DNA of 64,000 bases from Psammoneis japonica (lineage: Eukaryota). A program made the translations under genes and the position numbers. Under the pieces are notes generated by a model. That model did no database searches and was not told the origin of the DNA. It was given only the letters and a program-made list of their open reading frames with translations. Where the stretch lies: assembly GCA_008632985.1 (NCBI GenBank), contig QPGO01000094.1, positions 230,721 to 294,720 on the forward strand, in the 5' to 3' direction. Positions 14,298 to 55,262 of the stretch are shown piece after piece (the stretch's first letter is position 1; every line of letters starts with the position of its first letter).

Positions 14298-15235
14298 TCT
14301 TCGTGACTAGCAACTTGTTCTGAAGCGGTCGTCGTGCCGATGCGTCTCTTTCTCATCTCGTGGTTGAACGGCGTCGCGTTTCGCTGAACGCGTCGGATGG
14401 AGTTTTCGAGAATTCCAAAAAATCCAGCTGACGTCATCACCGTTGACGTACGTACACATTTGTTCATTGCCAAACCAGCACAGCCAAAAATAATTTGAAA
14501 ACCTTGACAGAACAACACAGCACTTTAGCTAGGAAGTAAAGTTCTGTTGATGTTATTCAACACGAAGCATTTCACCTCAGTTGTCTGCCCCCAATTTGTC
14601 AGATTGGCACTTCTTGTGCTGTGCAAGGTTGTTTCTTTTTTGTCAGAGAGCTCTGCTCCTTGTGCCTTTGCGTCATGTGTCGTGTGCTGTGCACGCAGCT
14701 GGCACACCAAGCAACTCTGGATCATGTGCCCTGCCTTTCCCACAGACTCCATTCAATGTCTGCACACAGACTCCAAAGGGCTTCAAAAGGCTTCAACTTT
14801 GACAAGTGACAAGGCAACAAAAAATTGTGTGGCGGTGGTGGCCACCACTGGCTCCCATCTGAGGGGGGCGGAGACTGTTGTTTGTCCGGTTGTCTCTGGC
14901 ACAGCTGCTTTTTACAGCAGGCAATGTGGTGCCCCATTGCTTTGATCTTCACCCACACTTGCAGGCAGACATTTGTTCTGTGTTCTTCATCCTTTTTAGA
15001 GGGTGCTGCCCCTGCTTCTCTCTGTGCCTGCAGGCAGTTTGGTGGTGCAGCTCTGTGTGTTTTAAGAAGCAAAACAGCGCATCTTCAATCCCTTCCAAAG
15101 CATGTGTGGCATCATGAAGCTCCCCCTTTTTCCCACAAGAGTGGCTGCTGCTTGCTCCTTTTCCTGTCATTGTCTGCAGAAATCTTTGCTTTAGAAAGAC
15201 TGCCACACCCCCCCTCCCCCTGCGGAGAGCCAAGA

Positions 15236-15480
15236 TGACAGAAAATGAAGATGACTGGGTGGAAGAAAACAACAACTCCTCACTGCTGTCTAAATGGCAG
15301 ATGAGTCTCCATGCAGAGACCATCACAGGAGCTGAAAGACTGGTGTCATGACATTGGTGCTGCTGTCATTGTTCTTGTGAGCCGTGTGGCTCGAAAGCAA
15401 ACCACATCGCACGATGTGCGCTGAACCAAGAGCACACATGATCATGTGTGACAAACTAAAATCTTGGTCAAATCCTGTCA
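15236..15480 (-). repeat. 3' LTR of copia A
   Basis: Direct repeat of 22056-22297, TG...CA ends, flanked by TSD and PPT. Confidence 0.9.
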
Positions 15481-18400
15481 CTCCCCAGTTTGCTTGAGGG
15501 GTCAACAGTGACAGATTTGAAGTCAGATTGGTTGAAAGCCCAGGGATCGAAGTTCCAAAACATCAGAGGACGAAGGAGGCTCCAGATTTGGGAGCAACCC
15601 CAATGCTTGCTGAGGATGTCAGCCGGGTTGCAGGAGCCTTTGACAAAATGAAACTCGAGGAAACCGGAGGCAATCGCCTCATGCACACGATGGAATGAGA
15701 GGGCGGTGTGTCGTTTGTGTGACTCGGAGTGCGGGATGGCAGCACTGTCCACAACCGACTTGTTGTCCCCAAACATGTGACATGTTTCACGAATGGGAAC
15801 ACCAAGGCAACGCAAAGTGATGCACAGATCAATGATCTGCTCAACCCACGTCCTTGCGGCAACAAACTCGGATCCATGTGCAGCAGCTTCAACTGTTGCT
15901 TGTTTCTTGGAGAACCAATCAGCCGGAAACTTGTTGAGGAAATGGAGGATGCCGGTGACAGAGCATCCAGAGATTGCAATGGAACAAGTTCGCATCAACG
16001 CAGTGTGTGGTGGTGACGAACTTGCCAAGCGGCTCGGGTGCATCTTGCGGGAGCAGCTCTTCTGCCTCCCCACACACAGATTGAGCCCAGTCATGCATGG
16101 GTTTGGGGAGGTCCGAACAGTCGGGCTCCTCGGTGCGCACTCGGAGGGCGCCATGACGCATCTTAGAGGAATCTGCAGATGCATTTGGCGTGGTCTCGGT
16201 GGCCTTGACGTGGTGCTGCATGGAAGCCAGACAGGGACATGACAGCCATGGTGATGTCAATGCAACCTGGAGACACGGCCCATTGCAGGGATCCAATCAA
16301 GGATTGGAGTTGGTGGATGCCGTCCGGTTTGAGCAGTTCGGAGGTGTCAAGCTCAGGGTGGTCACCCTTGTCAAGGGGTGAAAGCACATCAGTGCGGGGC
16401 TTCTCCCCAAAGAGGTGCACGTGGTTGTCAACCATGTGCTTGATGCACTTGCAGGGAGCAAGGCACAGAGTGCCATCTGGGTCACGGCAGGGTGTCTGCA
16501 AAAGCCTGGGGGTCCTTCATGGCGAAGGCTGGGTCGCCCACATGCACTGCCACGCATTCGCAGTGGTCGCCATTCCTGTGCAGCCAGATGTCGGGTTTGG
16601 CTTTGCATGGGAAGAAGCCTTCGGCACGCAAGCAATTGGCAAAGCATTCATGCCATCTGAGTCCGGAGCTGCGGAGTCCGTACAAAGCCTTGTGGATGAC
16701 AAGGATGTGTCCTTCCAGGTCGCCAAACTCGGGGCCTGCTGCGATGTGCAATTCTCCTTGGTCGTGGCTTCGAGGCAGGCATTCCCAATGTCAGTGGCCC
16801 AGGTCTCTAGTTCGTTGAGTTCGGCCAGGAAGATCATCCTTCGCAGGCCACGTAGAGACACTGCTCCGGAATGGACACTGTCAACAGGCACGTCTGTGAG
16901 GTGTCCATCAGCAACAAGCCTTGCTTTGTGCCATCCGTCATGTTTGACGTCGCAGACGAGGTGCACTCAGATCTTCTTGTGTCCTGATGGAGCACTGGAA
17001 TCCTTGTGGTGTCCGCAGTTGTGGAAGACCTTGCACTCATTAAGCTGAGTCATCTCAAGGTCTGTTGCGTCTCCCCACTTAAAGTTGCCGTTGCGCTCAT
17101 CAAGGGCCATGGCATGCTTGTGGTCCTGTGGCACTTCACACCCGCACTTGCATCGTGGCACAGTGTGAAAGGAGTGTAACTTGGCTTGGTTGGCCATGCG
17201 GAACAGCTTCTTCTGGCGAAGGGCTGTCTTGCAAAAACGTCTCCACCCTTCGGTTTCTAGAAGGCCGTGCTCATGTGCGTAGATGGCACAGGTGATGGGG
17301 TCGTCCTTGGCAATGATGGCAAGAGGTTCAGACGTGATCTCCCCATTCTCCCACTCAAGCATGACGTTGCAGCTTGAGCCTTTCCATGAGGGATCATGGG
17401 TTCGCAATGGTCCTTTGTGTGATGCGATGTGTCGGAACTTCCAGAGAGTGGTGTCCTCGTCTTCTTGCTCAATGCGGTGCATGATGTCATTGCAGGCCAG
17501 GACTTCCTCGCATTCGTCATTGTTGATGGAGCAAATGAACTTGACCAGTTCAGGATTGCCTCCGATTTTCCAGTCGTGGTCCTCAATGGCTTTGACGATG
17601 CGGGCTCTGTGGCATTGTCCATCCTCTTGTGGCTTCATGAGGAAGGTGCATCCCATGATGTCCTTGGGGTCAAAGACCGGCATTTTGGGCATCCTGATCG
17701 CCTCCCCATCTGGTCAATCTGGCAAATCCTTGGAGTCATGGCGGGATTTAATGACAGGGTCAGCAGATTTCTTGTCAGGAGGATCAAGACGCAGGTTTGG
17801 AGCAGATGGGTCACGGGCGGAGCGCACGTTGGAACAGTGGAGAATCTTCTGAGTGTCATCAGAAAGAATCTTGAACGTCATTTGGTGACCAACGTGTTTG
17901 GCGATGCCAACAAAGCAACCACACAATTCACGAGATTTGGGCGGCCAGTCGGAATCATCCAGGTGGCAGCACACGGGTTCCCACCATTGAAAGCGGAGGA
18001 GTGGGCTGATGTCAGGAGCAGAGCCGGACAGCCTTGGTGGGGGTGCGCCAGTGGAGCTTGGCAGATGCCGTGTGGTTGAGCACAAAACACACGCACATCA
18101 GGGTGAGCAGCCAGGTGCAAGCTGGGGACCCGAAGCGATCCATGACAGTGTCAGCCATGGTCTTCACAGTTTGGCAGCGGCATTCAGTGAAATTCTGATG
18201 CCGGTGGTGAGGCTTGCTTTGCCAACTGGAGATGAAGAGGGCACGAAGGATGACAAGAACCTTGTTGCTGATCTCAACCTGAGCACGGTCGCTGATGAGC
18301 TTGGACGGGGCACCGCGGTTACGAATGTTGTCTTCGAGGGTGTTGACAAATTCTTTGTCAGTTTTGGTGCCATGCACATCAGTGACGAGAGATTCCATGC

Positions 18401-19814
18401 CGACAAAGAGCTGGGCGCTGGTGCAACCAGAGTCAATGGCAGGGGGTGTCGGCACAGACCGTGTCGGCGGCAACGGGTTCATTGCGTCGGTGGACATTGA
18501 GAGCCGGGTTGGGTGATTTGCACGCCTTTTTCAGGTGCATGCTGGCTGGCATGTGGGTGCACTGCATCATGCAATCAAAAGTGCGGCGGACAGTGTCCTT
18601 CGGGAGAAAGCCAAAGCAGGGGCGGAAGGTGCAGATCTGGGCGGTTTCTCACCAGAACGGGCGGAAGGAGGCCGTTCAGGTGCCAGGAGATGTTGCAAGT
18701 CGCCGGGTGGCAGGGGCTTGTGCCTGGTGAAATGAGCCAGAATGGGGTTAGCATCAGCTGCATCGGCTGTGGCGTCGGATGGTGCAAGCTCCGATGCAAG
18801 ATCATGGGTGTTGGCAGGCAAGTTGATGTCGCCGTCACTGCCAAGACGGAGGTCGTGCAGGTTGACCATCGTTGAGTCATGGTGGTTGCTGGTGTGGGCA
18901 TTGCGCGAGCCAAGAATGATGGCCTTGGTGGACTGGGGCAAGGTGTCCCAAATGCGCTGATGGTCCAGCGGAATGCAACGCCATTGTTCCCTGGTGAGGG
19001 AGTTGCCACGGGTCTGTGCAGCATGAGCTTGGATGACGTCAACATCACTGTCGATGTTGAAGAATGCATCATCATGGGGGTCGTAAGGAACCAGGTCATG
19101 TTCGTAGATGGCACGGCGTGGAGCGCAAGGAGCAGTCTTGGGGGTGAACGTGCTGTCGCACTGTGCTGCAGCAGAAAGCAGAAATCCACAGTGCTCTTCG
19201 CAAGAGAGACCCTTTCCATTCTGTGTGCGGAACTGATCAGCTTGATTCTTTGCCAAACAGAGTTCTTTGACAGGATGAACGGCGTTCTCAAGCATGACAC
19301 ATTTCTGGCCAACAGAGAAGTGGTCCGCACCTGGGACAAGAGCTTCGTGCTTGTGAAGCTGGTCCTGCCAGTGAAGCATGAAGGCATGAGTGGATCCTTT
19401 CCATGTGCCATCACTGAGGCAAGCAGTGGTGAGGCACATGAGAAGGGTCGAGGACTCCAGGGATGTGCAAGTGGAAGCAAGGGCGCACTTGGAGAGGTCA
19501 CGACAGACCACTTGAGCATCAGAGGAGCCGACATGTTGACGGACAAGTGCCTTGCCTTTGTCATTCTGCAAGATCCATTTGAACACTGCAAACATGCACT
19601 TCTGTTGTTCATCAAACAGGGCCTTGTCCTCAGCTGCAGAGGGCTTGTGCGTTGGGTCGAGAGTGTGTGCGACGTCTTGGGAGCGGGCCTCTGTGATGAC
19701 GGAGGTGTGCCACGTGTGCCACTGTTTGTTGGACTTGAGAACCGCGAAGGCAAGTGGGTCACGTTTGATGCCTCATTTAAAGTCACGCACGGGATCACGT
19801 GGTTTGGGTGGCAA

Positions 19815-20854
19815 TGGGGTGTCCTGGCACGCGCGCTGGTTGGTTGGTTCGTTGGCTCGTGGAGGGAATCCTGAGGGAATTCTGCCAAATTTGTCTTGCT
19901 CGCGGGAGGATGCCTCGCACAGTGTGGTTCGTAACTTGGACTTTTCAGTCTTACAGACCAGCCGCAGCCGCTGAATGAAAACATGCCAAAAAAACAACCG
20001 CAGGGGCCACAGTAAAAATCAGCACTCCCATTCAGTCCCGGATTTCTCTTTTTTGTCGCTCCAGAAAATGATGAAAAAAAGAGCTTGGAGGTTTTGCCCA
20101 GTGCCAGCTGCAACATTTGTTGTGTACACACGACCTGCTTCGACCCACTTGACGAATGAAAACATTGAAAATGTGCACTTGCATCAGAGAAAGTGAACTG
20201 TTTCAGATTTGTCGTAGTGCCACCAACAAACTGCCGGCACGTGACGATCTGCCACCAAACTCCCAAAGCAATGATGGCGGCTGCAATTCGGGCAATCAAT
20301 TCCTCCGTCGTTGCACTGTTGAGACGTCACATTGAGACAGGGCATCATGCCAATGCCTCCAGTTTGTACGCCAACGTTTGTTGCGATGAATGATGTGGTC
20401 GTCAGCATCTTCTCGGTGTCGACGCCGAGAACGCCTTTGCCAAGGCATGCAGTGGCAGCCCTAAGAGGCAACAAAAACAACCCCGTCACAGTGCAAATGT
20501 TTGATGTGATTCATTTTTTTTGTGACTGTCGAGGTGCTAGATTAAAATTTTATTCACATGTGTCATGCCTTGAATCATGCAACGAGAAAAGGTTGTTGTG
20601 ATGCTTCATAAAATGTCCGTGTTGTGTGCAGGTGACCTGGACACATTCTGTGCACAAGACCGGATCGCATTCCACGGGACTGAGATGTTTTGACAAAACG
20701 GAAGCTCCAACCCACCGAGGGAAAATCTCACTTTGCACGGGCATTGATCAGATGGTCACACAGCTTCATGAACTCACGAACAGAAACAGAATCTTCGTGC
20801 GTGCCGCGCCAAACCAACCAACCAACCAACCAGCGCGCATGCTGGGACACCCTG
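19815..20854. mobile_element. Non-autonomous TIR DNA element inserted in gag of copia A
   Basis: ~35-bp inverted ends TGGGGTGTCCTGGCACGCGCGCTGGTTGGTTGG / CCAACCAACCAGCGCGCATGCTGGGACACCCTG; removing it rejoins gag in frame (SAPTPGL..LPPKPRDPVRDFK). Confidence 0.8.
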
Positions 20855-22055
20855 ACAAGCCAGGAGTGGGAGCAGATGGTGCTGTGCCCATGGAGAGGGA
20901 CGCTGCACACTCAGGACTAAGACAACAGTTGGTGAACTCCTCTTGTGTGAACAATTGAGGGTCATTGCTGACATCCGCGCTGCCGTGCGCTTTTGCCATG
21001 TACAGGCTAATCAACGCAGCTGTCTGTGCTTTGTAACCATGTGGCAAAGGCACATGACTGGTGCCGTCGTTGCACACAAGGGCATCCAATTGCATCGGAG
21101 TAAAAGTGAAAAGGTCCTGATGCAAATCGGTTCCATCAATGTTGAGGGCGGAGCACAGTGGACTGTCTGCGGCTTGATTCAGAACAGTGCCTAGAATGTG
21201 CTCGAGGCCATCGATTTGCTGTTGCCTGGTGAGAACCATGTTGCAACTGGGTGGGTGTCGGAACCAGCTAGAATCGGAGTGTGGGCTTGAAATGACTTGA
21301 AACTTGACTTGAATCTTGACTTGATGTCTTGAACTGTCTCAAGAGTCAGAAGCCGCTGGGCTGTGACATCCCGTTCGTAGTTGAGTGCTGAGCTTCCTGT
21401 CCGGTCCGTAGACTTGTGCCGGCATGTCCGAACCCGCAGCTGGTGATGCTTTGGGTTGCTTGAGAGCAGAGTGACGGGTTAAAAACCCCTGCTGACAAGC
21501 TGACCAGAGGTGGACAAGACCTCCGAACCGTTCTCATTTTATGTCGGTTGGATGACCCGATCAGGCCGGCCAAATTTGGCGCTGTGGAGGGATGAACAAA
21601 TGTGGGAAATGCACCCTCACCCCAACGCAGGCTGCAATCACGAACTGCTTCCTCTCACAGTTGTCCTTGTGGACCTTGTGGGACTGCAGAGGACCAGCAA
21701 TCCAGTGTGGATACAAGGCAGTAGACTTGGCGTGCGTGGAGCAGAGCCAGAGTCAGGGGTTTGTGTCGTGTGCGCGAGGATGCGAGCGGATGGATTGGTG
21801 GGATCCGCTGTGAGGAATCCGGAATCTCGGATGCTTGAGAATTTGGGAAATCCTGGTCAAACAAACATCTGGCGTTGAATGAACACATCCAACGATGGGA
21901 GGTGTTGGATAAATCCAAACATGTAGATTCAATCCAGCACCCAGCAGTGAAGAAGGTAGATGCATGCTTCCACCGCCAACGGTGCGCGTCGTCGAAAAAT
22001 TTCTCCATGACGATGATGAATGCTCAATGGACAATGAAGAGCAAGACTGTCAATC

Positions 22056-22297
22056 TCACAGAAAATGATGACTGGGTGGAAGAAAACAACAACTCCTTGC
22101 TGCTGTCTAAATGGCAGATGAGTCTCCATGCAGAGACCGTTGCAGGAGCCGAAAGACTGGTGTCGTGATGTCGGCACTGCTGTCATTGTTCTTGTGAGCC
22201 ATGTGGCTCAAAAGCAAACTACATCGCACGACTCGCGTGGAACTGAGAGCACACACAATTGTGTGTGACAAACTAAAATCTTGTTCAAATCCTGTCA
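22056..22297 (-). repeat. 5' LTR of copia A
   Basis: Direct repeat of 15236-15480, followed by TSD CAAGA. Confidence 0.9.
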
Positions 22298-25047
22298 CAA
22301 GAGCTGCACTCTTTTGTTGTCCCAACATCATTGGCCACTTTGTCATTGCTGCTGTTGACTGCAGCTCAGACGTCTTCACAATGTTTTCCCTGTCTGTGTG
22401 GGTTGGCTTCAAACCAAGTGGGCAATTTGCATTTCCCATGAAGTTGAGGTTGCTGGCAACTCTGTCCAGGCTGAGCAAGTTTGGCACCACCCAGATGTCA
22501 CACCGCATGGACTGCATTTTTTGTGCAGCAAGGGCAAGTCTCTTGAAATCTTCAAGGAGAAGACCAACATGTGTTTGAAAGCTGGTTGCCCCTCTGGTTC
22601 TTTTCTGTGTGCTTTGTCTCCATGGCAGACACCCAGTTTGCCAAAATGACTTTTCCAAAGACCTGGACTCTGTTTTCAACAAGTTCTCTGTCAGATCAAT
22701 GTTGTGTCTGCATTGAGTCACAGCACAGAGGGCCTTGGAGAAGCCTTCTCACCTGGGGCCTCTGACTGGCCATGCAATGGGCCACAAGGGTGGGGTGCAA
22801 CCTGCTTCCCACAGCTTGTTTTGGGGTTTGTCAGAAGACTTGCTGCTCTTTTGCTTCCAACAGCACAGCAATGCAAGAAAGGAGGCCTTCTAAACCTTGT
22901 GCTTTTTGCACCATGTGCTTGGTGTTGTGGGAGGAGTGTGTTGCAGGGACACCCATCCAGCAACCCACAATGATCCTTTGCCATCACAGGCTGGGGTGCT
23001 CTGTCTCCCATGCCCAAAAGCTGGATTTGGCAGAACTCTTGCATTTCACCAAAACAGCACACTTGCAACAGCAGAGGATTCTTGGTGAGAGCTCATTTCT
23101 GCTGCACTGCTGTGACCTGTGGTCATGTCACATCTTGCAGCTTGACAACAGCAAGGTCTTTGCCAAGAAATCTTCCTCCTGTGCAGTTGCCCTGGCTGAG
23201 TTGTAGTGGAGAGCAAAGAGATGGGGTCATCAGGTGGCTGCTGCTCTCTCTCTCTCTCTCTTCATCTTTGTTGGAGAGTTCTCCCTCCTCGCGTGCAGCC
23301 ATGAGATCAAGCAACATTGCCACACTCTCATGTGCAAGCAAACAGCACCAAGCACTCCTTTGCAATGCAGTGCACCCCAACATGCCAGCCTGTGACTCGC
23401 AACTCAGCCATTTTGCAAAGCCCTCTTGGACTTGTTCCTTGCATTGTCCACCAGCTGCTGTGCAGCATCCTCAGATGCTGTCCAAGCGGAAACTTGATCC
23501 CCTGCATTTTTCAACACAGGAGCAGCCCTGTCCTTCTGAAGAACATTTTGACAATGTGGCCTTGTTGCCCAACCCCCACCCCTCTTGGTGCTGCCAACGT
23601 GGTGCACTTTTGCCAGGCATGGTGGGATGCCAGCCAGAAAATGCATGTTTTTGTCTGTTCTTCCACTGTGTTCTGTGGAGCCACACAGTGGCACTGGCAG
23701 GTTTGGTGACAACAACACAAGGAATTTTGACAAGTTGATGTGTGCCCCACATGGCCCAGCTTTGTTGATTTGGTGCACCAGAGACTTGCAACAACCAGAC
23801 TCTCCATTGCAAGTCAAGCCAAAGCTGCAATGTGGGACAGAAGCTGCTCTCACTCCCAAAGCCCAAACTGGCATTGACAAGTGCCAAAACATCCAGGTGA
23901 TGAGGCTGGTGTGCTCCAAAAAAGGCACCTCTCTTTGCTCTTAACATGACAGTCATGGTGGCTGGAGAGCAAGCTGAGAAGTGGTTGGCACAGGCAAATT
24001 GTCATGCCTGTGGTTGCCCCCCCCCCGCCATGTGTGCAACAAAAAAAAGGTCTGCCCCTGCTCCTTCTTGACAGTGATCTGAGTGACACAATTGTGCAGA
24101 TGACATTTGGTGCAGCTGCTTTTCTGCAGCTCTTTCCTGTGCTGCCCTGGTGCCACAAATGTGACATCATTTTTGTGCAGCTCTTTGCAAACAGCTCTGC
24201 AATGTGAGGAATGAATGTGGGTCAAGAAGCCTGCGGCACTCACTCTTGAGTGTGATTCTCAACAGCACCCAGAAGAGCTGATGCCTGAATCAATGGACAC
24301 ATTTTGGCACGTTGTTCACCCATGAAAGGCACCCCAATGTGAGGGCACAAAAACCTGACAGCACTTGAAAGTCACTGAAATTGTCAACAAGCCTGTCAAT
24401 CCATGCTGAACAAAGGAGAGGCAATGTCTGCAAATTGTGAACAAAATGCAGCAGTTCCAACAACATTGTTTCTTCTGTCCTCGTGAAGCCAAAGTGCAGT
24501 GTGCATTGACAGACTTGCACTGGACAGCTCTAAAAACACTTTTGATTTTGTGGCTCATCATTTTCAAGGAATCTACAGATGGTTTGGAGTGCAATCTGGA
24601 GAATTGCCCCAGGTTTGTTGGCAGTGCATGGTGCACTGCAGTTTGTGTTAGATCCAATGTTGGCAGGGACAGATGAGTTGGCCCCTCTTTTTTCCTTGGC
24701 AGCTGCCTCTTTTCTTCAAGGAGGGGCCACAAAAGGCCACCACCCATGACCCCTCTCTGCAAGACTGCTCCCCCCAACTGGCCCAGCCCTGCTGGCTTGA
24801 GAAGACTCAACACTTGTTTTGCAGAAGGCCAGGGGGGTGAGACTTCTCTCCCCATGCCATGGCAACAGTGCTGGAGATGCTTTTTGAGGTGTCACAACTG
24901 TTGTCAGCTCCACTCTGTCTGCTTTGAACAGAGACACATCATTGTCAAATGCATCTGTCCTGTCTGGTGCATTGCCATCCTTTTTCTCAGTCTGCCATCA
25001 AACCATGTGCACTTTGTCAGTGAGTGTCTGTGGCTTCTGTTTTGTTG

Positions 25048-32948: not shown

Positions 32949-32955
<7 letters not shown>

Positions 32956-32980
<25 letters not shown>
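32956..32980 (+). repeat. (GA)n microsatellite
   Basis: Direct reading. Confidence 0.9.
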
Positions 32981-37941: not shown

Positions 37942-37970
37942 TGTTGTTGTTGTTGTTGTTGTTGTTGTTG
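37942..37970 (+). repeat. (TGT)n microsatellite
   Basis: Direct reading. Confidence 0.9.
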
Positions 37971-44278: not shown

Positions 44279-45547
44279 TCTAGAGCAGTGATCGGGCGCT
44301 GGACTGACTGAACTTGCTCATAACCCAGCGCCAGCCGAAGCCAAGAAGCGGGAAAGGTGCTGTTGTTTGCTATTTCCTGGTCCATACGAGTGTGATGTTT
44401 TTAGCAATATCATTAGTATTGACGTTGATTAGCAATAACTTGTCAAAACATCACGCTCATACTCATCGCTTCTGGCAAACGACATCGTCGAAAGCAACGG
44501 CAACTCACCATTTTTTTTCACGGTGCAGCATGGAAAAAATTGGTTTTTGCGTTGGCCTGCACCAGAGATATATAACACATACATATAACCGCGCACACGT
44601 GCGCGAGATTAAAACACTCATGGTACAAAGTCAAATTTGGGTTCAAAACTGGAGATGTGGACCGCTTGCATTGGACAACGGTTTAGGAGGTGTGCACTCA
44701 CTGGTTGTGGACAGAAAGGGCGTCGTGTTTGATGCCAGGAAGCTGGCGCATTTTTTTGAGCAACAAGTCCAGCGAGATGGACCTTGCAGGTTGTGGCGAT
44801 GCGACGAATTGGAGTTCTTTGAATTGACACCAAGGACGGTTGACGGTTGGATCTTGGAAATCATCGAGAAAATGGACTTGGGTGGGGGTTCCAACTGTTG
44901 TTGTGACGATGAAAAGGAGAGGAAATGACAGAGACAATGTCCAAAAAAGAAGAAAGAAAAGATCCATCATCATCATGTCAAGCGTTTCGTTGGTTGTGTT
45001 CATGAGGCAACAAGCGCGTTTGATCGCATGACTGACCGCTCATGTGAGGGGAGGCACAGCAATTTTGTCGCTGTCCATTTAGAGGAGGATGCAATGGAAG
45101 AAGTGCACCAGAGATCGATTTTGGCGCCGGGTGTCTGTCAGGGGTTAAGAGCGCATGGAGCACGGGTGCAAACTTCAGCCCTGTGGGGATCAATGTTCAT
45201 GTGCAATTCTGCACAATTCAAAGTTTCAAATGGAATGATCCAGCCACATGTTAAATTTGTCATTGACAATCAATTGCAACATCCAAATGGAACATTTTGT
45301 CTCTTGAGCTGAAATGAATGCAACCAAGGATGTGGTTTTCAAAGTCAAATGATGAACAATGCTGATTGTGATCATTTGGGAATGATGTGACAGTTGACAA
45401 TGCACAAGGAAGGGGAGGTGGCATTGCCATCAGAGTGTTGGGAAACAGGTTTGAAATTTTGCAAAGACGGTCTTCCTCTGAAGAGCTGTTGTGCTGCACG
45501 ATTGCAGCAACTGGAGGAACTGACGGTGACACAATGAGTCAAGGGCA

Positions 45548-46742
45548 ATGGGAAGGAGGAAGAAAGCAGCAAAGAAGGATGCTGCACCAGGGGCAGAGGG
45601 AGCACCCAACAGCCCGAGGCTCACAGCAGCGTTGCAGCTGTCGTGGGCTGCTGCTGATCACCAGTCACTGAAGAGAGAGGTGGAAGAGGTGGCATGGAGA
45701 GAGCTGTTCCCAGAGGCAAAATTCCTTGTGAAGGCGGACATGGCAAGTGGTGGCAAGGTGTCATGGCCAATGCGCAAAAACAAAGCAGATGGCAAGTTCA
45801 GCAAGTGCGAGCGGGTGGGATCATGGGAGGACTGGGCTAAAAAAAGTGTGCTCAATGAAATCAATGCAAAAAGAAACACCGTGTGTCAAACGATGATGAA
45901 GAGTGTGATGAGCAGCAAGTGAGGTGGAGTGGGGCATTTCCGAAGCGGAAACAGATGTGGTGCTGCTGATGAATTTCTTGTTTGCTGCAGTCGTTGTGAC
46001 AGAAAAACAAGCAAGGGAAATCCATGACAAAAAGAAGAAAGAAGCAAGGAAGAAGGCATCCGGAAAGAAGTGGAAAAAGGATGAAGCTGACATTGAAGAA
46101 GAGTTCATTGCAACTTGGGAGGATGGGACGGTGGACACAATTGTGTTTGAGAAGCGAAAGAACAGGGAGGCGCACGCATGGTTCTGTGACAACGTCCCAA
46201 AATTCATGAAGAGCACTGCGATGTGGAGGAGGATGGCAGAGTCCAGCAGCACCAAGGCCACAGATCTGTCTGCTGCAAGCGACGAGGCACTGGCCCTGTT
46301 GATGATGGAAAACTGCTGGAAGGTTGGGGAGTGCAAGAAAGTGCAGGAGGGAAATGACGAAGGGAGCAAAAAGGGGAAACCGGCTCATTGCACACAGACC
46401 CGTCACGACAGCATGACTCTTGGAAGGATGAAGGAACAGCGCACTTCAACGAATTGCCAAAGGAGGCAAAGGAAGACAGGGCGGTGTGAGCAGGGTGTGC
46501 ATTTCGACACGTGGCACACAGACGAAAAGAAAAAGGAGAGCAAAGGCAAAGGAAAAAAGGGAAGAAACACTCAAGAACCAGCGAAAACAAAGATGAGAAA
46601 GCAAGCAACAACAGAACTTTCTAGTGAGGATGAGGAGGATGATGAAGCAACGGATGCACCAGGTGGCAAAGGAGATGAGGAGGAAGATGCAGCCAGCCAG
46701 GAAGACAGTGACGAAAGCAAAGGAACTGAGACTCCAGTGTGA
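45548..46742 (+). pseudogene. Decayed ORF, probably a DNA-transposon accessory protein
   Basis: Two consecutive Lys/Glu-rich ORFs (45548-45922, 45924-46742) with SDEALALLMMENCW and an acidic tail; no Tyr in either. Family assignment is from recollection only. Confidence 0.4.
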
Positions 46743-47750
46743 GCAAATTGGAAATGCAGGACAACCAGGACAGCAGCATTGACTCAGTGTTGTTTGACAG
46801 TGAATGTTAAAAAGCTGTGGCGATGCACCACTGTTGATTGCAAAGAGCAGAACAAATTCATTGCATTTGTCACTTTAAATGATGAAACAAGCACATGATG
46901 TAAAAATCACTGACGACATTGATTGTCAGCTGTTGTGTTGAACAAAGGCACATGCCAAATGGGAAAAGAGGGGGGCGTTTGCATGGTTAAAGTTGTTTTC
47001 TTGTGGATGAAAAGAGGCATCTCCACAGTTAAAAAAATCACCTGTCATGGATTAAAATTTGTTGCCAGCTGCACAACTGATGAGGTTTGAAACTGCAAAA
47101 ATTTTGTCTGTTAAAGAAATAAAAATCACAATGAAAAGGCAAGGCCGGGTCACTGTGTTGCACCCTCTGATGTGCGCGCAAACCCCCAACATGTGCGCAA
47201 ACCCCCCAAGATGCATTCATGGTGAAATCGTGTGGAGCGCATGACAGGGGACACCCAACATGTCGATTTCACTCCCCCATCACATCATGCAACATGGGTT
47301 GATCTCATTTCCTGTGGATGCTGAGATGATGTCATTCCTGAGCTGCTCAATCAGGAGCACCATGAAGCTGTGGTTTTCAGTCATCAAGCCCTGGACATGT
47401 TTGGTGATGACACCGTCTTTGAAACCAATGATGACTCTTCTCTTGTTTCAGACTTGTCAGCTCCTCTCTGAAGTGTCTTTCTTGCTTGTGTGATCTCCAT
47501 CTGCATCTTTCACAGTGCACCTCATTTTGCATTTTATTTCTCTGCTTCATTTTTACAAACATTTGCCAAATTTATTTTGCATCTGACTTCAGCTCTGCAC
47601 TTCACCCCCACTTCCCATTTCCAAATTCCTTTTCCCTTCTCAGCTTTGCTTTCCCTTTGGCCTTGCTTTTTGGCTTTTGCCCGCTGCCCAAACCCCAACC
47701 CTGACCCTGAACAAAGGAAGCACACAAGTCAAGATGAAAAGCAAAAGACA

Positions 47751-48620
47751 TGCCGACACCCTGACACCCCGACTCGCCAACACCCTGACACGCCGGCACC
47801 CTGACACCCCAACACCCCGACTTGCCGACACCCCGACTTGCCGACACCCCGACTCGCCGACACCCCGACTCGCTGACACCCCGACTCGCCGACACCCCGA
47901 CTCGCCGACATGCTGACACCCGACGTGTTCCAGGTCCAGGTGGGACCTCACACTGCTGAACTGTGACATCGATGGTTTTTTGAATCGCGTCGCATGTTGC
48001 AAATGTAGATTTCCATGTGATTTTTGCGATGTTTTGTGTCATTTTACGGTGCACTTGTTGAGCGATCCATCCAACAACTTTTGACATTTTTTGTTGCAGC
48101 GCAATTCTACAATGTCTTAAGAATCGCGCAGGGCAGGCGCACTTGCAAAAACGTCGAGTGGTGTGAGGCACAATTGCACCACAAACTTGGCTGTTCATTT
48201 GACGTTGAAGACAAACATGTCCATTGATTAAATTCTCACACTGCAGAGCTCGCACATGGAATTCTGCGGGCCCAATGTCACACGGAGTCCCACCCAGGGC
48301 TGGAACGCGTCACCCTGACAAGCTGACATCCCAACTTGCCGACATCCCGACTCGCCGACACCCCGACTCGCCGACACCCCGACTCGCCAACACCCCGACT
48401 CGCCGACACCCCAACTCGCCGACACCCCAACTCGCCAACACACTGACACCCTGCCGACACCCCGACTCGCCGACACCCCGACTCGCCAATGCCCCGACTT
48501 GCCGACACCCCGACTCGCCGACACCCCGACTTGCCGACATCCCGACTCGCTGACACCCCGACTCACCGACACCCCGACACGCTGACACCCCGACACACTG
48601 ACGCCCCAACACCCCAACTC
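47751..48620 (+). repeat. 16-bp minisatellite (CCGACACCCCGACTCG)n, split by a MITE at 47922-48311
   Basis: Tandem copies at ~47751-47921 and ~48312-48620. Confidence 0.9.
47922..48311. mobile_element. MITE, TIR GACGTGTTCCAG, 4-bp TSD ACCC
   Basis: GACGTGTTCCAG...CTGGAACGCGTC flanked by ACCC on both sides. Confidence 0.75.
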
Positions 48621-50235
48621 ATCAAATCTTTTTAGAGGCACGTGCCACAGCTGCACTCTTGAGCATGGGCCCAAACAGCTCCACTCCAAAAACCATCAGC
48701 AAAATCTTCCATGTTGTCAAATTTGACATCATCTCTTCCATGTTGGCAAAATTGATCGGACCAAAGTCAACCTTGCATGCAGGTGGAGCAAAGTCATTGG
48801 CTGCCATGAGCCCTGAAAACCCATGCATGCGATTTCTTGCACGCGATGCATGAGCTGGGTTGGGTTCCACAAATTGCACAAAATCACTCGCTCCATGACA
48901 CGGCAGCTGACGGAGAAACATTTGTCACTCTTCTGACTCCTCTCTTTTCTTTCTTGCAATTCGTCCTGTCAAAGATGTTGAAAGCACCTTCCATTGCTGG
49001 CCAAATGTTTCCTCCAATCCAAAGCTCCAAATCAAAAGCACATTTCAAGGGCCAACAAAGGCAGGTCGATTCTTTGGTTTTGCATCAAAAACGATTTGCA
49101 AGGTCACCTCTGCTGACTCACTGCCCCTGTGATTGTGCCTCCTCAGTGCACACTCAAATTGTGGTTTGCTCATGGCACTGGGCAGCAGTCAAATGGCCAT
49201 GAGCTGCTCAATCTGGAGCACCATGAAGCTGTGGTTTTCAGTCATCAAGCCCTGGACATGTTTGGTGATGACACTGTCCTTGAAACCAACAACAACTCTT
49301 CTCTTGTTTCAGACTTGTCAGCTCCTCTCTGAAGTGTCTTTCTTGCTTGTGTGATCTCCATCTGCATCTTTCACAGCGCACCTCATTTCTGCATTTTATT
49401 TGTCTGCTTCATTTTCACAAACATTTGCCAAATTTATTTGCATCTGACTTCAGCTCTGCACTTCACCCCCACTTCCCATTTCCCATTTCCTTTTCCCTTC
49501 TCAGCTTTGCTTTCCCTTTGGCCTTGCTTTTTGGCTTTTGCCCACTGCCCAAACCCCAACCCTGACCCTGAACAAAGGAAGTGCACAAGTCAAGATGAAA
49601 AGCAAAAGACATGCCGACACCCTGACACCCGACACGCTGACGCCCCAACACCCCAACTCGTCAAATCTTTTTAGAGGCATGTGCCACAGCTGCACTCTTG
49701 AGCATGGGCCCAAACAGCTCCACTCCAAAAACCATCAGCAAAATCTTCCATGTTGTCAAATTTGACATCATCTCTTCCATGTTGGCAAAATTGATCGGAC
49801 CAAGGTCAACCTTGCATGCAGGTGGAGCAAAGTCATTGGCTGCCATGAGCCCTGAAAACCCATGCATGCGATTTCTTGCACGTGATGCATGAGCTGGGTT
49901 GGGTTCCACAAATTGCACAAAATCACTCACTCCATGACACGGCAGCTGACGGAGAAACATTTGTCACTCTTCTGACTCCTCTCTTTTCTTTCTTGCAATT
50001 TGTCCTGTCAAAGATGTTGAAAGCACCTTCCATTGCTGGCCAAATGTCTCCTCCAAAGTTCCAAATCAAAAGCACATTTCAAGGGCCAACAAAGGCAGGT
50101 CGATTCTTTGGTTTTGCATCAAAAACAATTTGCAAGGTCACCTCTGCTGACTCATTGCCCCTGTGATTGTGCCTCCTCAGTGCACGCTCAAATTGTGGTT
50201 TGCTCGTGGCACTGGGCAGTGGTCAAATGGCCATT
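48600..50235 (+). repeat. Tandem segmental duplication with ~1.04-kb period (48600-49199 ~ 49640-50232; 49200-49630 ~ 47339-47770)
   Basis: Near-identical sequence and duplicated ORF translations. Confidence 0.9.
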
Positions 50236-50818
50236 CAGAGCCAGTGCTCTTTTTTTTTGTCCAGCGGGTGACTCGAATTCCTGTCCCATTTGCTGCATGA
50301 CAACACACGGGGCCAAAGCAATTTTGGAGCCCTGCCCCAGGGCTTTTTCAAAATGAGCCACATGAACAAGCTGACAAACCAAGGGAAAATGCTCAGGCAT
50401 TGATGTTTCTGTGCTTCTGAACAAGTGCACCAGCAAAAAAGAGACTCAGCTTGCCACCACTTGCAACCCGTGCTGCCCCTCTTGTGAAACACTTGCAAAA
50501 ATTCAGCAGACACAGGGGCTGCTGGAAAAAGCTGGCATCACACCCATGAGCATTTTTTGCAGTGTCGCCAAACCAGCTCAGAAAAGAAAAAAAACAGACG
50601 TCTTCATGAACGAGAGCAACACAAACAAACATGCAATGAAGCCACTCAAGATTGCAAGGCTGTTTGGTTTGTGTTGGACACCATGTTTGAAGATGCTGTG
50701 AAAGCGTGCAAGAACTCAGCACACCCAACAGTGCTTGACCATGCAGCTGCAATGAAATGGATGAAGGACAGCAACACTGAATGCCGCAGGTCTCCTTTTG
50801 CACTTTGCTCCTCAAAGA

Positions 50819-51341
50819 GACGTGCTCCAGCCACATGTGGACCAAACCATGCACAAAAACAACATTTGCATGATTTTTGCACAGTCCCCAACTTGCGATC
50901 GATCTTTCACCACCAAAAGCACAGATTCACACAAACACAAATGATTTGCAACTCCAACAAGACTCATGTGAGTGTTGCAACATCATTGTTTTTGTGCAAT
51001 CTGTGTTGTTTTTTGCAACAAACAAGTCGCAACACAATGGATGATTCTCGGTGAAATTGTTGCCATCACTTTGAAGTCGACACAAACAATTTTTCTGCGA
51101 TGATGTCACGTGTGGGTTCCACCTGCATGCAAGCATTGAGTCTGCTGAGGGAGTTTGTGACACATGTCCCATGAGGACTTGCACACCTGTGAAAAACCCA
51201 GCCAAATGTGCACACTCTTGACACCTGCAAAAACCCCTCCCTTCGAGCATTTTACATGCAAATGCTTCACACACAAGAGATTCACAATTTGTGTTCAAAA
51301 TTGATTGTCGTCTTGTGCATCACCTGGGATTGGAACACACC
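50819..51341. mobile_element. MITE (GACGTG.TCCAG family), TSD AAGA
   Basis: GACGTGCTCCAG...TTGGAACACACC flanked by AAGA (50815-50818, 51342-51345); homologous to 52720-53277. Confidence 0.75.
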
Positions 51342-51699
51342 AAGAACAAGCACAAACGAAAGTGGAGTGAAGTGCAAAAAGTGAAAATTGTGAGAGATTG
51401 GATTTTGCTCAATCATTTTGGGATTCTCGGAACAAGTTCTCAATGGCCCAAAGCTTCTGTGCTGCTTCTGCAGACCAAAGGCTTTTTGGAGAATGTGTCC
51501 TCCATGACAACAGATTGTCTGGATGTGATTGCTGCTGACACATGAGATGTCAACATCGTCAAGTGATTGCATTCACAATTTCCGACATCCAATCATTTCT
51601 GTGTGACTGATCTGTCCTTTGCACGAACCCACAATTGACGTGTGATTGAGAGCACAACAATGTTGATGTGTGAACATGTGCACAAAACAATGCACATTG

Positions 51700-52021
51700 C
51701 ATTTGCCTTCCCAATTGCACATCAAAGTCATTTGTCAAATGGCACAATGCAACAGACATTGACAGTGTCAACCATGTCACCACATTTGATCTGTGCTGTG
51801 CCATCAGTGTGTGCCGTTGTCATGGCGTGTGGTCCAGCATGTGGCTGTTCTAATTTTTGGGAGCATTTTTTGAGTGGTGTCTTTTCTCTTGCTCTGCTCG
51901 TGCATGGAGTGTGTTGAGTGTTCTTTTGAGCATTGTTTTTGTTTTTGATTTGTTGTTTCTGTTTCTGGACTGGCTTCCAATCAGCAATGTGTTGGACATT
52001 AAAAATCATGTCTCCATTGAA
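51700..52021 (-). mobile_element. Ty3/gypsy-like integrase C-terminal fragment
   Basis: VFNGDMIFNVQHIADW...KLEQPHAGPHAMTTAHTDGTAQIKCG..DTVNVCCIVPF resembles the gypsy pol end (FGRDM..W, P(Y).GP(Y), NGTV, N.RR..P); cut by a MITE-type end at 52022. Confidence 0.6.
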
Positions 52022-52719
52022 GACATGTTCCAACTCCAGGTGGGAGACGTGCTCCAGCTCTGGGTGGGACCTCGCACTTCTGAACTGTGACACAAATGTT
52101 TTTTGTCATCCGTCGCATGTTTTGCATGTGCATTTCTGCATGTTCTGTCACAAAAATTGTTCCACACTGCCTTTTTTATGAAGCCAAAGGCTTTCAAACA
52201 TTCCAAGAACTGTTTCAGTGGATCCTTGACTCCAGCCGAGTGCGTGCTCCTGTGCCACTCTCCGGCCAAGACACGTTTGTCATGGGAAACAAACTGGAAA
52301 GAGTTTCCATCAGTGCACTGTGACGAGGTGTTTTTGTGCCAAGCTTGGGTGCAATGCCACAATGCCTTTCGACAAATGCGACAATGTCATTGCACAGGTG
52401 GAGCAGCGCTCTGCACAGTCATCCATCAGCTTGCTCAGCTCCACACAGGCCCCGTTTGGGTTGCTCAATGACAACAAGCTGGTGAAGGCAACCTCGGTGG
52501 GGTGTTGGTAAATCTTGCCCAATCTGCTGTCATCCAACAGAGAGGAAATGTTCCCTTGAGACGCTTGCATGTCATCTGTCTCATTGCCGTTGGAAAGATC
52601 CATGGTGACGTCCGGAAGCGTGGCAAAAGAGTTCACTTCTGAATTGCTGCTTTCGTCTGAAAGCATCTCCAGTGACATGAAATTGGCATCATCTGGGCCA
52701 CAAATGGAGGAGAGAGGGG

Positions 52720-53277
52720 GGCGTGTTCCAGCCACACGTGAACCAAATTGGGCACAAAAACGACATTTGTGCAATTTTTGCGCGGTCCCTAACTTGTGAT
52801 CGATCTTTCACCACCAAAAGTGTGGATTTGTGCAAATGTGAAAGTTTTGCAACACCAACAAGACTCGTGTGAGTGTTGCAACATCATTGTTGCTTGTTGT
52901 GCTGTCTGTGTTTTTCACTGCGTCAAAAGATTCGCAACACAACGGATGATTTTTGGTGAAAATGTTGCCGTTGTTTGGATGTCACCCAAATGTGTCTTTC
53001 TGCGATGCCACTTGGTGGGTTTTCCACCCACAAAGAAATCTCAGCATAAATCCACTGATGCACAATCAGCATTGAGTCTGCTGAGGAAGTTTGTGACACA
53101 TGTCCCATGAGGACTTGAGTGCCCCTCAAAAAACTGTTTAAATGTTCACACTCTAGAAGCCTGCAAAAGTCAACATGTCTGAGCATTTTGTGTGAAAATG
53201 CTGCACACACTAAAAGACACACAAATCAAACTCAAAATTGATTGTCGTTTTGTGCGTCACCTGGGACTGGACACGTC
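52720..53277. mobile_element. MITE (same family), TSD GGGG
   Basis: GGCGTGTTCCAG...CTGGACACGTC flanked by GGGG. Confidence 0.75.
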
Positions 53278-53298
53278 GGGGATGTGTTGTCTTCGAAT

Positions 53299-53370
53299 GC
53301 TGGTGACCATGGAGCATCAGAAGGTTGTTCGGACGCTGGTGACCATGGAGCATCAGAAGGTTGTTCGGAC
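53299..53370 (+). repeat. Perfect 36-bp tandem duplication
   Basis: GCTGGTGACCATGGAGCATCAGAAGGTTGTTCGGAC x2, no spacer. Confidence 0.9.
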
Positions 53371-55262
53371 GACCGGGTGGAGCCAGCCATGTGGGCATTG
53401 GAAATGGAGGCTCCTCATCTTGACCATCTCAATCCATGTGCGGAGGTGTCATTTGACAACGAGGAAGAATCGAGTCCCCGAGAACTTCTTTTGTGCAAAT
53501 TTGCATTCCTGGAGGTGCTCCGCCTGCCAACCACTTTGACACAATCATCGGGAAACAAGTTGGGTCCCGACACACCTTGTGCCACCAAGTTTGACATTTT
53601 GCAAGTGACAGAGAGACATTGTGGATTGCGATTTAAGTTTGCCGAGCATGTGCTGGAAGGAGCGCTGGCAACAAAGACAGGCAATTGCTTCTTTGCCCTC
53701 GTTGTCAGACTGCAGCAGCTCCATTTTGGGGTTTTTGTGGAAAGAAACAGTCGCGCATTGGTGAGAGCAATTGTGCAAATGGTTCTGGCCAAGGTTTGGT
53801 CATGTGGACAGTGTGTGTTGTGAGGGGCGGCAGGATGCAAGACATGAAATTGGCACAAAAATTGTGCTCATTTGTTTTTTTGCATTGACGAATGCTTTTG
53901 CAGTCGCCTGTCAAAAGAATGAGCTGGGATCATTGAACACTTTCGGGCTGCACAACAAATGAGAATGTGAGAATTGCCAACAGAAAGGAAAGAGCAAGTT
54001 GGAGCACAGTCTTCAGAATGTTTTGTGGTCACCACTCACTGTCAATTCTTTAACTTGCGCATGCAGTGAAAAGACGGACGTTGTTCCACGGCCGTTGGTT
54101 CCACCAGCGGCACGGCATCAACGCATCAAGAACAACACCCGTTCTGCCACAACTTGACAAGTGACCTGCAGTTCCACCATGGCTTCCATTGTCCAGAACA
54201 ATTTGTTGCTGGCATGCTGGCCTGATGACTGCTGGAGGAAACTGGCTGAGGCGAAGAGTCTGAAACAAGAAACAAGAGAAGAAAAGATGGAGGCGGACTG
54301 CAGCGCAGCCAAAAAAGAGCCAAGTTGATGGTTGGGCACGGGGAGGAAGGAACCATCCAAGGACCCCCACTTGTGAAGAGACTGCATGGACATGTGTCAT
54401 TTAACTGGCTCATGCAGCAAGGTCATGTGCGGCGACTTGGGCAACGAGCCCGCAGACGTCAGTGCAATTTGGGAGATTCATTTGAAAAACATGGAGAGGG
54501 GTGAACAAACCATCAAGGAGAAATGGAAGGAACTGTGGGAAACCAAAGACAACATTGTGAGCCGGGTGCATGAGAACATGCATGGATGGACCATGGAGGT
54601 GAGGGAATGCACGCATGCCACCCAGGCCATGTTCTCCAAAAACAACAAGGACGAGCGATCAAGTTTGATCATCGAGCAAGCGAGGAATGCTCACAGCCAA
54701 AACATGGCAGTGTTGGAACTCAACAGCAATGCACCTTGACAGGTGGGGAGAACAGCACCGTGCAAGCGGATGGCCAAACGACCACAGCAATGAGCTCGTG
54801 GATCTTTTGGCAGCTGGGTCAAGGGATGGCAAGCTTCGTCTGGCGATTGACAAGCAAGATGTTGATGCGTTGAGAGAGGAATCAACCATCAGCTTGCCCA
54901 CATGTGGAGTGGACCAAAGCGGCAGTTTTGAACCCAATTGGCAGTTTTGAACCCAACTGGGTTCAAAACTGCAATTTTGAACCCAAGCAACGGGTCCAAA
55001 ATTGCAGTTTTCGACCCGCCCCGAAAAAGGGAGAGGCACGCGCTTCTCACGAGGCGGCAGGCGATCTGTGCACCTTTCCCATCAGCTTGAACTGCACTCA
55101 AGTGGGCGGTGAAAGTGCACGCTGATCGGAAATCTTTCGTCGGTATCTTTCTCCTTTCTCGCTTCTGGCACACATCGAAGCCACCGAAGTCGAAGTCAGT
55201 GTTTAGCGTTGCATTTTCTCACAAATCTCAAGTTTCTTTCGCGTGGGAAACGAAGAGACACT

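Follow-up and report, generated by a model that had tools for sequence, protein, structure and literature searches.

In a 64,000-nucleotide stretch of the genome of the diatom Psammoneis japonica (contig QPGO01000094.1, positions 230,721 to 294,720; hereafter the window), two blocks of DNA holding Copia-type long terminal repeat (LTR) retrotransposons have lost nearly all of their TA dinucleotides and carry TG and CA in excess. Judged from comparisons of copies and relatives, the direction of change is proven to be TpA to TpG or CpA, that is, A:T to G:C at the A of TpA on either strand, and a hypermutation that acts on DNA and is targeted to whole domains is very probably responsible. We infer that the process is the same as that measured in the chlorarachniophyte Bigelowiella natans. 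The window represents a new lineage of a process so far described in one preprint, is the first evidence of it in diatoms, and gives the clearest picture so far of the saturated end state and sequence preference of the mutator. An earlier note on this DNA, made from the letters alone, had described the pattern as a new, repeat-restricted genome defence system, and its claims are taken up below. The main features are listed here, with dinucleotides given as observed/expected (o/e) ratios.

14560-41450, no strand: hypermutated block 1 (TA 0.04-0.12, CG 0.06-0.64, TG/CA 1.5-1.85 by sub-block)
15238-22298, minus strand: element A, an old Copia-type LTR retrotransposon (LTR pair and a pol C-terminal remnant at 15597-15962)
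25047-32108, plus strand: Copia B, a Ty1/copia LTR retrotransposon (gag-pre-integrase, SH3 and RVT_2 signatures)
32109-41450, no strand: most deeply converted stretch (TA 0.05, CG 0.11)
36546-36947, plus strand: ankyrin-repeat relic within the converted stretch (Ank_2, E = 3.2e-9)
38145-38787, minus strand: hexokinase pseudogene relic (Hexokinase_1 and Hexokinase_2 colinear, in different frames)
41600-44650, no strand: unmutated gene island between the blocks (TA 0.62, CG 1.10)
44700-55140, no strand: hypermutated block 2 (TA 0.04-0.08, CG 0.48-0.60)

Composition was read as a per-kb table of dinucleotide o/e ratios and the edges were taken from a 100-bp profile. The pooled blocks (37,332 bp) hold 165 TA at an o/e of 0.07, compared to 1045 (0.62) in the flanks (26,352 bp); about 1,480 would be expected in the blocks at flank density. 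TG (4078, o/e 1.69) and CA (3712, 1.65) are in excess in the blocks compared to the flanks (1827, 1.09 and 1784, 1.11, respectively), and CG is depleted (952, 0.41, compared to 1658, 1.04). AA (1.25 in blocks and 1.15 in flanks), TT (1.20 and 1.12) and AT (0.86 and 0.92) are undepleted, so the TA deficit is not a general loss of AT, and GC content is equal at 0.497 in the blocks and 0.492 in the flanks. All 1-kb bins at 14001-40001 and 45001-54001 have a TA o/e of 0.00-0.26, with 0.36-0.87 in the remaining bins. CG o/e is 0.06-0.11 at 22.3-25.0 kb and 32.1-41.5 kb and 0.48-0.64 elsewhere in the blocks. The edges, near 14,555, 41,450-41,600, 44,690 and 55,140, are sharp to 100-200 bp with ordinary genes adjoining; at the right edge the open reading frame (ORF) of an acetylglutamate kinase opens at 55113 and TA is back at 55144. 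The hand counts of TA in the earlier note (1 in 30001-30600, 2 in 22801-23400, 31 in 1201-1800 and 15 in 7501-8100) were exact, and the TG/CA excess and the persistence of AA and TT that it described are borne out by these figures. Of its span, 14550 to 55130, the right end at 55,130 is correct, but the span also takes in the normal gene island at ~41.6-44.65 kb (TA o/e 0.62), as its mention of both repeat blocks implies. CpG decay was understated there, CpG being depleted together with TpA in the same blocks.

Stop triplets change accordingly in frequency, from 8.9 per kb in the flanks to 1.9 per kb in the blocks for TAA and from 8.3 to 1.3 per kb for TAG, with TGA increased. Because TAA and TAG are scarce, long meaningless ORFs are abundant in the blocks; 101 stop-to-stop ORFs of at least 110 amino acids lie there outside Copia B, nearly all of them free of domains. 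TGA is almost the sole stop left in both blocks, a trap for gene predictors. Block 1 is less depleted at 20001-22000, in element A beside its upstream LTR, where TA stands at 10-15 per kb (o/e 0.16-0.26). This part may have been inserted more recently, or it may abound in the slow context YTAR described below (Y, pyrimidine; R, purine).

The sequence is found in public runs (X1, X2, X3) of the same sample and one study. X1, a DNA run, contains 90% of sampled words of 38001-46000, and its Logan contigs were compared over 25001-45000. Five of its contigs, 0.9-6.4 kb long, span 32076-44402 and differ from the window at 0, 2, 0, 2 and 3 positions; disagreement between raw reads and assembly had been set beforehand as a possible refutation, and the two agree. 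Word depth of these contigs was 62-78, the same as in the gene island (64), and 32109-41450 was at single-copy depth at 90% likeness or more (59-110, with one bin at 233). As the converted sequence is present in raw reads at single-copy depth, it is not the product of an assembler or polisher. The summed k-mer depth of Copia B was ~1,080-5,400 compared to 64 for single-copy DNA, and Copia B therefore belongs to a multi-copy family. Transitions make up 266 of the 296 variant places in X1, with C>T/G>A changes from CpG decay mixed in.

The direction of change was read from the protein that Copia B would encode. Its pol ORF (28983-31793) contains 2 tyrosines in 936 residues (0.2%), compared to 2.5-5.2% in 21 relatives. 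The ORF was aligned with 20 relatives of 36-50% identity, taken from those of 150 that cover most of the query, and a conserved tyrosine column was defined by tyrosine in at least 70% of relatives (n = 17). Tyrosine is kept at 0 of these 17 columns, while 236 of the 306 other conserved columns are kept (Fisher p = 6e-11). In place of the lost tyrosines stand seven His (CAY), six Cys (TGY), one Arg (CGC, a double hit), one Trp, one Ser and one Phe. Isoleucine changed to valine at four conserved columns, all four directly behind T, i.e., at a TpA that crosses the codon border. Single TA>TG/CA steps account for 22 of the 87 changed conserved columns, these four isoleucine columns among them, and single CpG steps for 8. 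TG and CA are each raised by 0.34 over intact relatives, which together with the balance of His to Cys (7:6) shows that both strands were hit; the sense-strand excess of TG over CA is ancestral (1.32, compared to 1.07 in 21 intact loci).

Copies paired within the window independently give the same direction. Two LTR pairs and two duplications provided 1,509 aligned columns with 81 differences, 69 of which are transitions and 61 of which are interchanges of TA, TG, CA and CG at one dinucleotide. Sites where one copy has CA and its partner TG numbered 16 in the four paired copies, compared to 0.85 in simulation (maximum 5; 0 of 5000 reached 16). CG/TG and CG/CA differences are also present, and a hand estimate based on the CG/CG and CG/x counts puts the number of CA/TG sites that CpG decay could produce by itself at ~4; most of the 16 therefore descend from TA. 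The 244-bp LTRs of element A (15238-15481 and 22058-22298) are 87.7% identical, and 22 of their 27 mismatches are such interchanges, including seven CA/TG double sites; the same holds for 13 of the 14 mismatches between the 175-bp LTRs of Copia B (25047-25220 and 31934-32108). The LTR pairs alone have 10 CA/TG double sites and four TA/TG or TA/CA sites. LTRs are identical at integration yet differ now, so the changes arose later, in chromosomal DNA. The remaining divergence of the paired copies is 20 in 1,509 columns (1.3%). A two-state model of LTR divergence with an equal rate at every TA site under-predicts CA/TG sites and was dropped, rates being clearly context-dependent.

Reads from the rest of the Copia B family agree. 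Among the best-supported 40 of the 296 variant sites, the CA or TG of the window corresponds to TA in most family copies at 25710, 27677, 31233 and 31880; at 29696 the window keeps TA and most family copies have CA; at 27351, 27605 and 28307 TG and CA occur among family copies; and at least 12 sites have CG in family copies and TG or CA in the window. The earlier note proposed that TpA, on whichever strand, is the target of A:T>G:C transitions, and this is upheld by the loss of tyrosine to His and Cys, by the CA/TG doubles of the LTRs and by the family reads.

The TA sites that remain are not a random sample of contexts. Retention in the blocks relative to the flanks was 0% for ATAT and GTAT, 2% for ATAC, 5% for GTAC, 1-9% for ATAG/CTAT and ATAA/TTAT, 8-17% for GTAG/CTAC and GTAA/TTAC, 25% for CTAG and for CTAA/TTAG, and 49% for TTAA. 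Reverse-complement context pairs agree and an additive model fits. In a second set, four partly converted environmental copies compared to 21 intact copies that keep most conserved tyrosines, 12% of ATAT was left, 16% of GTAC and 22% of ATAC/GTAT, with ~80% of CTAG and of CTAA/TTAG. On these counts the preferred context is R-T-A-Y and the slowest Y-T-A-R.

Relative to intact relatives, Copia B has 14% of the TA level left and 72% of the CG level, and its LTRs diverge by 1 in 175 at positions other than TA/CG. Other divergence of the paired copies reached only ~1.3%, with 85-95% of TA lost. Roughly, and with a wide error, TpA loss was several times faster than CpG decay and about two orders of magnitude above background. 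Decay of CpG to TpG/CpA in the same domains explains some of the surplus of TG/CA but does not account for any missing TA.

The converted tract is continuous across element borders and takes in DNA at single-copy depth with relics of cellular genes. The DNA between and beyond element A and Copia B in block 1 is without transposable element (TE) signatures, and the elements themselves contain stops and frameshifts. At 32.1-41.5 kb, the part at single-copy depth at 90% likeness or more, Hexokinase_1 was recognized in ORF 38482-38787 (26.0 bits, cut-off 24.3) upstream of Hexokinase_2 in ORF 38145-38633 (27.8 bits, cut-off 24), and the relic matches PDB hexokinases at E ~1e-6; the ankyrin relic lies in the same part. 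A Pfam search of the 101 ORFs described above and of 127 ORFs of 45-109 amino acids at 32.1-41.7 kb gave, beyond these two relics, only a few sub-threshold chance matches. The term repeat-restricted is not supported by this DNA and seems too narrow. The target looks like a silent chromatin domain, which fits better than strict recognition of repeats.

Relatives of the Copia polyprotein outside the window come, where named, from Nitzschia inconspicua and Cylindrotheca fusiformis. From environmental assemblies, 80 contigs with relatives were kept of 428 confirmed matches, by a scan with conserved peptides that favors intact copies; tyrosine was scored in 75 loci, in each of which 6 or more of the 13 tyrosine columns could be aligned, and five loci were dropped. 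TA o/e in the 80 ranged from 0.29 to 0.83, with 0.66 in intact relatives. At least 90% of tyrosine columns are kept in 35 of the 75 scorable loci, and a graded minority is depleted in tyrosine: L023 and its near-duplicate L025 keep 3 of 13 (2 His, 8 Cys), L052 3 of 13 (3 His, 6 Cys), L022 5 of 13 (1 His, 7 Cys) and L073 7 of 12 (4 His), while every locus keeps 0.78-0.96 of its other conserved residues. Related intact Copia elements are neither TA-poor nor Tyr-poor, the opposite of what had been named in advance as grounds for refutation; by the sequences compared, TA depletion is evidently not a property of this TE clade. L023, L052, L022 and L066 form one family (81-89% nucleotide identity) in which the same tyrosine column is His in one copy and Cys in another, so the same process acts copy by copy in other, independently assembled diatom-type genomes. 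The Cys:His ratio is lopsided per copy, at 21:6 summed over three related copies and 0:4 in L073, a hint, and no more, that single episodes may hit one strand.

In L023 (3001-5739) and L022 (351-3149) tyrosine is kept at the first three conserved columns and lost by conversion at nearly all that follow, so conversion can be limited to part of an element, with an internal border; at the step in TA density at ~2 kb in L052 no identifiable element end was found. In the protein libraries, tyrosine was at or below 1.5% in 7 of 150 representatives and in 2 of 117 near relatives. The signature was not found in a second named species, the six proteins from Nitzschia inconspicua or Cylindrotheca fusiformis having normal tyrosine (2.9-4.5%). 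Two full-length diatom-type Copia polyproteins that are 50-52% identical to that of the window (P0286, P0301) carry the NCBI label Flammeovirgaceae bacterium MAG (metagenome-assembled genome) and probably stem from eukaryotic contigs binned into a bacterial genome.

The system is not new, as the same TpA>TpG/CpA hypermutation was already measured in B. natans (Mettrop et al., bioRxiv 10.64898/2026.01.13.699255). According to the main text of that preprint, 231 of 302 new single-nucleotide mutations in mutation-accumulation lines fell in integrated giant-virus and virophage regions; all but one of the 231 were A>G or T>C, and those all at TpA. The TpA rate was ~6e-7 per site per generation, 1000-fold over background, in some lines only, and the mutations arose in Illumina-sequenced lines. 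The B. natans genome holds 124 TpA-depleted, CpA- and TpG-enriched clusters with enrichment of reverse-transcriptase and DDE domains, and its authors propose an ADAT2-like DNA adenine deaminase. The likeness extends from A>G/T>C changes almost exclusively at TpA in discrete regions, with TpA depletion and CpA/TpG enrichment, to targets that need not be repeated, the nucleocytoplasmic large DNA virus (NCLDV) insert of B. natans being single-copy (Mettrop et al., main text). In the window, too, transitions are near-exclusive in paired copies and reads, the changed A is preceded by T (13 of 17 tyrosines with TAY>TGY/CAY; the four Ile>Val columns), and the regions are discrete, of mobile origin and beside normal genes, with cellular relics also in the tract. 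The hosts differ, a diatom (Stramenopila) here and a chlorarachniophyte (Rhizaria) there. The end state is more complete here, with a TA o/e of 0.04-0.12 compared to a Rho of 0.45 for the B. natans NCLDV region and a cluster cut-off of 0.43, and the targets are LTR retrotransposons and cellular pseudogene relics in contrast to integrated viral or foreign DNA. CpG decay and a preference for RTAY accompany the process here, while the main text of the preprint is without CpG, diatoms or context beyond TpA; de novo mutations were measured in B. natans, whereas here the process is known from end states alone (comparisons with Mettrop et al.). A full-text literature search, covering few subscription journals, turned up no earlier account of TpA>TpG/CpA hypermutation from a diatom or any other stramenopile.

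Fungal repeat-induced point mutation (RIP) resembles the process in acting after integration, on DNA, by dinucleotide-directed transitions on either strand, in sharp tracts and on mobile elements and duplicated genes. It differs in that C>T at CpA creates TpA and AT-rich isochores, whereas here TpA is destroyed and GC is unchanged: TpA excess and AT-rich tracts are absent, with TA at 0.07 and CA/TG at ~1.7. RIP requires duplication and a sexual phase; here reads of at least 90% likeness give single-copy depth over some of the tract, though old converted repeats would look alike. Decay of 5-methylcytosine (5mC) at CpG shares the domains (CG o/e 0.06-0.64), the TG/CA products and a palindromic dinucleotide with the process, and is itself evident in the blocks from the pooled CG o/e and from CpG>TpG/CpA differences in paired copies and reads, but it is slower here and cannot remove TpA. 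The earlier note was right that neither RIP nor 5mC decay explains the loss of TA. Animal ADAR and APOBEC are likewise deaminases that hypermutate mobile or foreign nucleic acid, and ADAR prefers a 5' U; they act, however, on RNA or pre-integration intermediates, with C>T/G>A changes by APOBEC, whereas here LTRs diverged after integration and DNA that is no retroelement was hit.

The best explanation overall, which we consider probable, is as follows. The two blocks would be silenced islands where Copia LTR retrotransposons and unclassified repeats lie together with trapped cellular pseudogenes, and where a mutator acting on DNA has turned TpA into TpG or CpA after integration, on both strands and copy by copy. 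Targeting would be by chromatin state, that of a CpG-methylated silent domain, and not by sequence repetition as such. The outcome is irreversible inactivation, with Tyr becoming Cys or His and Ile becoming Val and every element in the domain crippled. As for the chemistry, our leading guess, a tentative one, is an ADAT2/TadA-type deaminase that converts adenine in DNA to hypoxanthine. In the natural tRNA substrates of ADAT2 and TadA, A34 always stands behind the invariant U33 (a 'TpA'), and the TadA site is U-A-C (a 'TAY'). Lopsided strand ratios per copy would suit a deaminase that works on a single strand. No candidate gene was found in the window, as the earlier note had also said.

The same phenomenon could arise through a heritable modification of thymine at TpA in silent chromatin, by TET/JBP-type oxidation to 5-hydroxymethyluracil (5hmU), 5-formyluracil (5fU) or a derivative, in which mispairing with G, as occurs with 5fU and 5hmU, would lead to T>C, seen as A>G on the opposite strand; this TpA analogue of 5mC decay, the main rival, we hold to be rather unlikely. 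TpA is palindromic like CpG, the best context RTAY is itself palindromic, and TA is lost in the same domains as CpG decay, all of which would suit such a mark. The lopsided Cys:His ratios per copy (21:6; 0:4) fit one-strand episodes better than a symmetric mark, and we know of no thymine modification in diatoms, nor was evidence of the dinoflagellate type of 5hmU found for them. Dinoflagellates, which also belong to SAR (Stramenopila, Alveolata and Rhizaria), make 5hmU by a TET/JBP homologue, enriched on repeats and silencing TEs (as far as the available text of PMC11572971 goes), which makes a T>C route conceivable; unlike the window, they have no mutational signature or TpA specificity reported in the text available. 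Early work on 5hmU reported TA and TC contexts, yet the base-resolution map in Breviolum is without a sequence motif (both from the available text of PMC11071213), and the B. natans authors favor a deaminase in the main text of their preprint (bioRxiv 10.64898/2026.01.13.699255). A-to-I hyper-editing of retrotransposon transcripts or double-stranded RNA by an ADAR/ADAT-like enzyme, fixed by reverse transcription, is very improbable. RNA adenosine deaminases are known to leave A>G changes with a preferred 5' U (discussed in the main text of Mettrop et al.) and two Copia elements are affected, but most differences between the two LTRs of an element are at CA/TG, TA/TG and CG/TG sites, contrary to shared edits, DNA that is no retroelement (inter-element sequence, the frame-split hexokinase relic) is equally converted, the tract is unbroken across element borders, and His is about as frequent as Cys among the outcomes.

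Modified bases can cause systematic errors in long reads, and the sequence was found in runs of one sample only; an artefact of assembly, polishing or base-calling over modified repeat DNA is nevertheless hardly credible. Logan contigs, made by another pipeline from raw reads, have a depth of ~64 as in genes and the few differences given above (0-3 per 0.9-6.4 kb), Tyr>His/Cys decay of the same sort is present in related elements from independently made metagenome assemblies, and the B. natans mutations were seen arising in Illumina-sequenced lines (Mettrop et al., main text). We give equally little weight to an origin in intrinsic composition or selection (UpA avoidance, codon usage) or in an untargeted bias (GC-biased gene conversion, WA>WG errors of Pol eta). 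TA is mildly under-represented everywhere, including the flanks (0.62), but catalytically conserved tyrosines are destroyed, the elements carry stops and frameshifts, and intact relatives have a TA of 0.66. GC is the same in blocks and flanks, and AA and AT are undepleted, contrary to a WA>WG or AT>GC drive; the Pol eta mechanism listed as a candidate in the earlier note fails on the AA values (1.25 in blocks, 1.15 in flanks).

Several points weigh against the hypermutation and deaminase that we favor. Polarity was read from relatives of just 36-50% identity, and neither TA>TG/CA nor CpG steps fit 57 of the 87 conserved columns that changed. Because TpA is self-complementary, an effect of a purine at -2 is inseparable from one of a pyrimidine at +1; the context baselines (flanking genes and the 21 Tyr-retaining loci) are proxies for the true ancestors, and ATAA/TTAT retention is 0.06-0.09 in the window compared to 0.83 in the partial copies. 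Eukaryotic ADAT2/3 tRNA substrates mostly have a purine at +1, a misfit to TAY. Old, heavily converted repeats would drop below 90% likeness and thus look single-copy. X1 shares sample and study with the best-matching run and may be the assembly's own source, and its library type is not on record. The enzyme, a modified base and de novo mutation are all unobserved, and the reasoning proceeds from end states.

In block 2 the Pfam search of ORFs gave no recognizable protein domain. The block contains internal duplications (47339-47794/49200-49654, 48568-49200/49608-50234 and 50821-51334/52722-53271) and 16-bp tandem arrays of the unit GACACCCCGACTCGCC at 47763-47910 and 48325-48594. The array unit is without TA and retains two CpGs, which accounts for the CG o/e of 0.92 in the bin at 48-49 kb. 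A motif, GGGTTCAAAAYTG, occurs nine times in the window with at most one mismatch, compared to 0.19 expected. Sites lie at 44639-44651 (the left edge of block 2) and at 54921-55004, and also at 745, 7921 and 51291; five copies in alternating orientation stand at the right edge of block 2 shortly before TA returns. The motif resembles the B-box/T-loop core, GGTTCRA, and in fission yeast clusters of B-box-type sites serve as barriers to heterochromatin. Just as well, the motif could mark where a repeated element ends, read depth rising to ~745 in 44344-45000. No tRNA genes or Rfam families were found in the window.

The flanks and the 3-kb island carry ordinary eukaryotic genes (WD40, two bHLH-MYC_N, PRP38, amino-acid kinase, Fip1), of which the following adjoin or separate the blocks, together with one intron.

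42732-42859, in the gene island: intron of 128 bases with GT..AG ends, skipped by a contig of run X2
43109-44278, plus strand: PRP38-family gene in the gene island
55113-56234, plus strand: acetylglutamate kinase gene (amino-acid kinase), which starts at the right edge of block 2

The best named relatives of the acetylglutamate kinase are all from diatoms (Nitzschia, Cylindrotheca, Seminavis, Fragilariopsis, Chaetoceros, Helicotheca; 66-83% identity). Together with the named relatives of the Copia polyprotein they mark the host as a diatom, probably of the pennate group, as opposed to Bigelowiella. The X2 contig joins 42731 to 42860, as by splicing, which suggests that X2 is an RNA data set, though it is not recorded as such. 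X2 covers five bins in the gene island and in the blocks two bins only, at low depth (4.24 and 1.87), and carries no evidence on expression. The two bHLH-MYC_N paralogues, at 6996-8633 (plus strand) and 10496-11971 (minus strand), are inverted and share 67-72% nucleotide identity over 230-515 bp; their TA and CG are normal, so a nearby inverted gene duplicate escaped hypermutation.

To our knowledge there is almost no precedent for A:T>G:C editing of genomes in nature, the adenine base editors in use being laboratory-evolved TadA variants only. With the diatom case the process spans at least two SAR lineages, including a main primary producer of the ocean, and is no curiosity of one species; its targets extend beyond integrated viruses to LTR retrotransposons and trapped cellular genes. 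The window supplies testable details, namely the RTAY preference, the coupling to CpG-depleted domains, the sharp borders on the gene side and a possible strand bias per copy, and diatoms are genetically tractable organisms in which the enzyme could be found. In practice, converted DNA with almost no TAA or TAG yields long spurious ORFs from gene finders, and TE libraries built from converted copies will miss active families. It is conceivable, at somewhat less than even chances, that diatoms and chlorarachniophytes share an ancient and perhaps SAR-wide defence that recognizes chromatin silenced and methylated at CpG and changes the A (or T) of RTAY in strand-coordinated episodes until TpA is gone. 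If so, transposons, integrated viruses and any trapped cellular gene would be destroyed by a functional mirror of RIP in fungi, driven by a naturally occurring DNA adenine editor. The finding points to a widespread RIP-like genome defence of opposite chemical direction.

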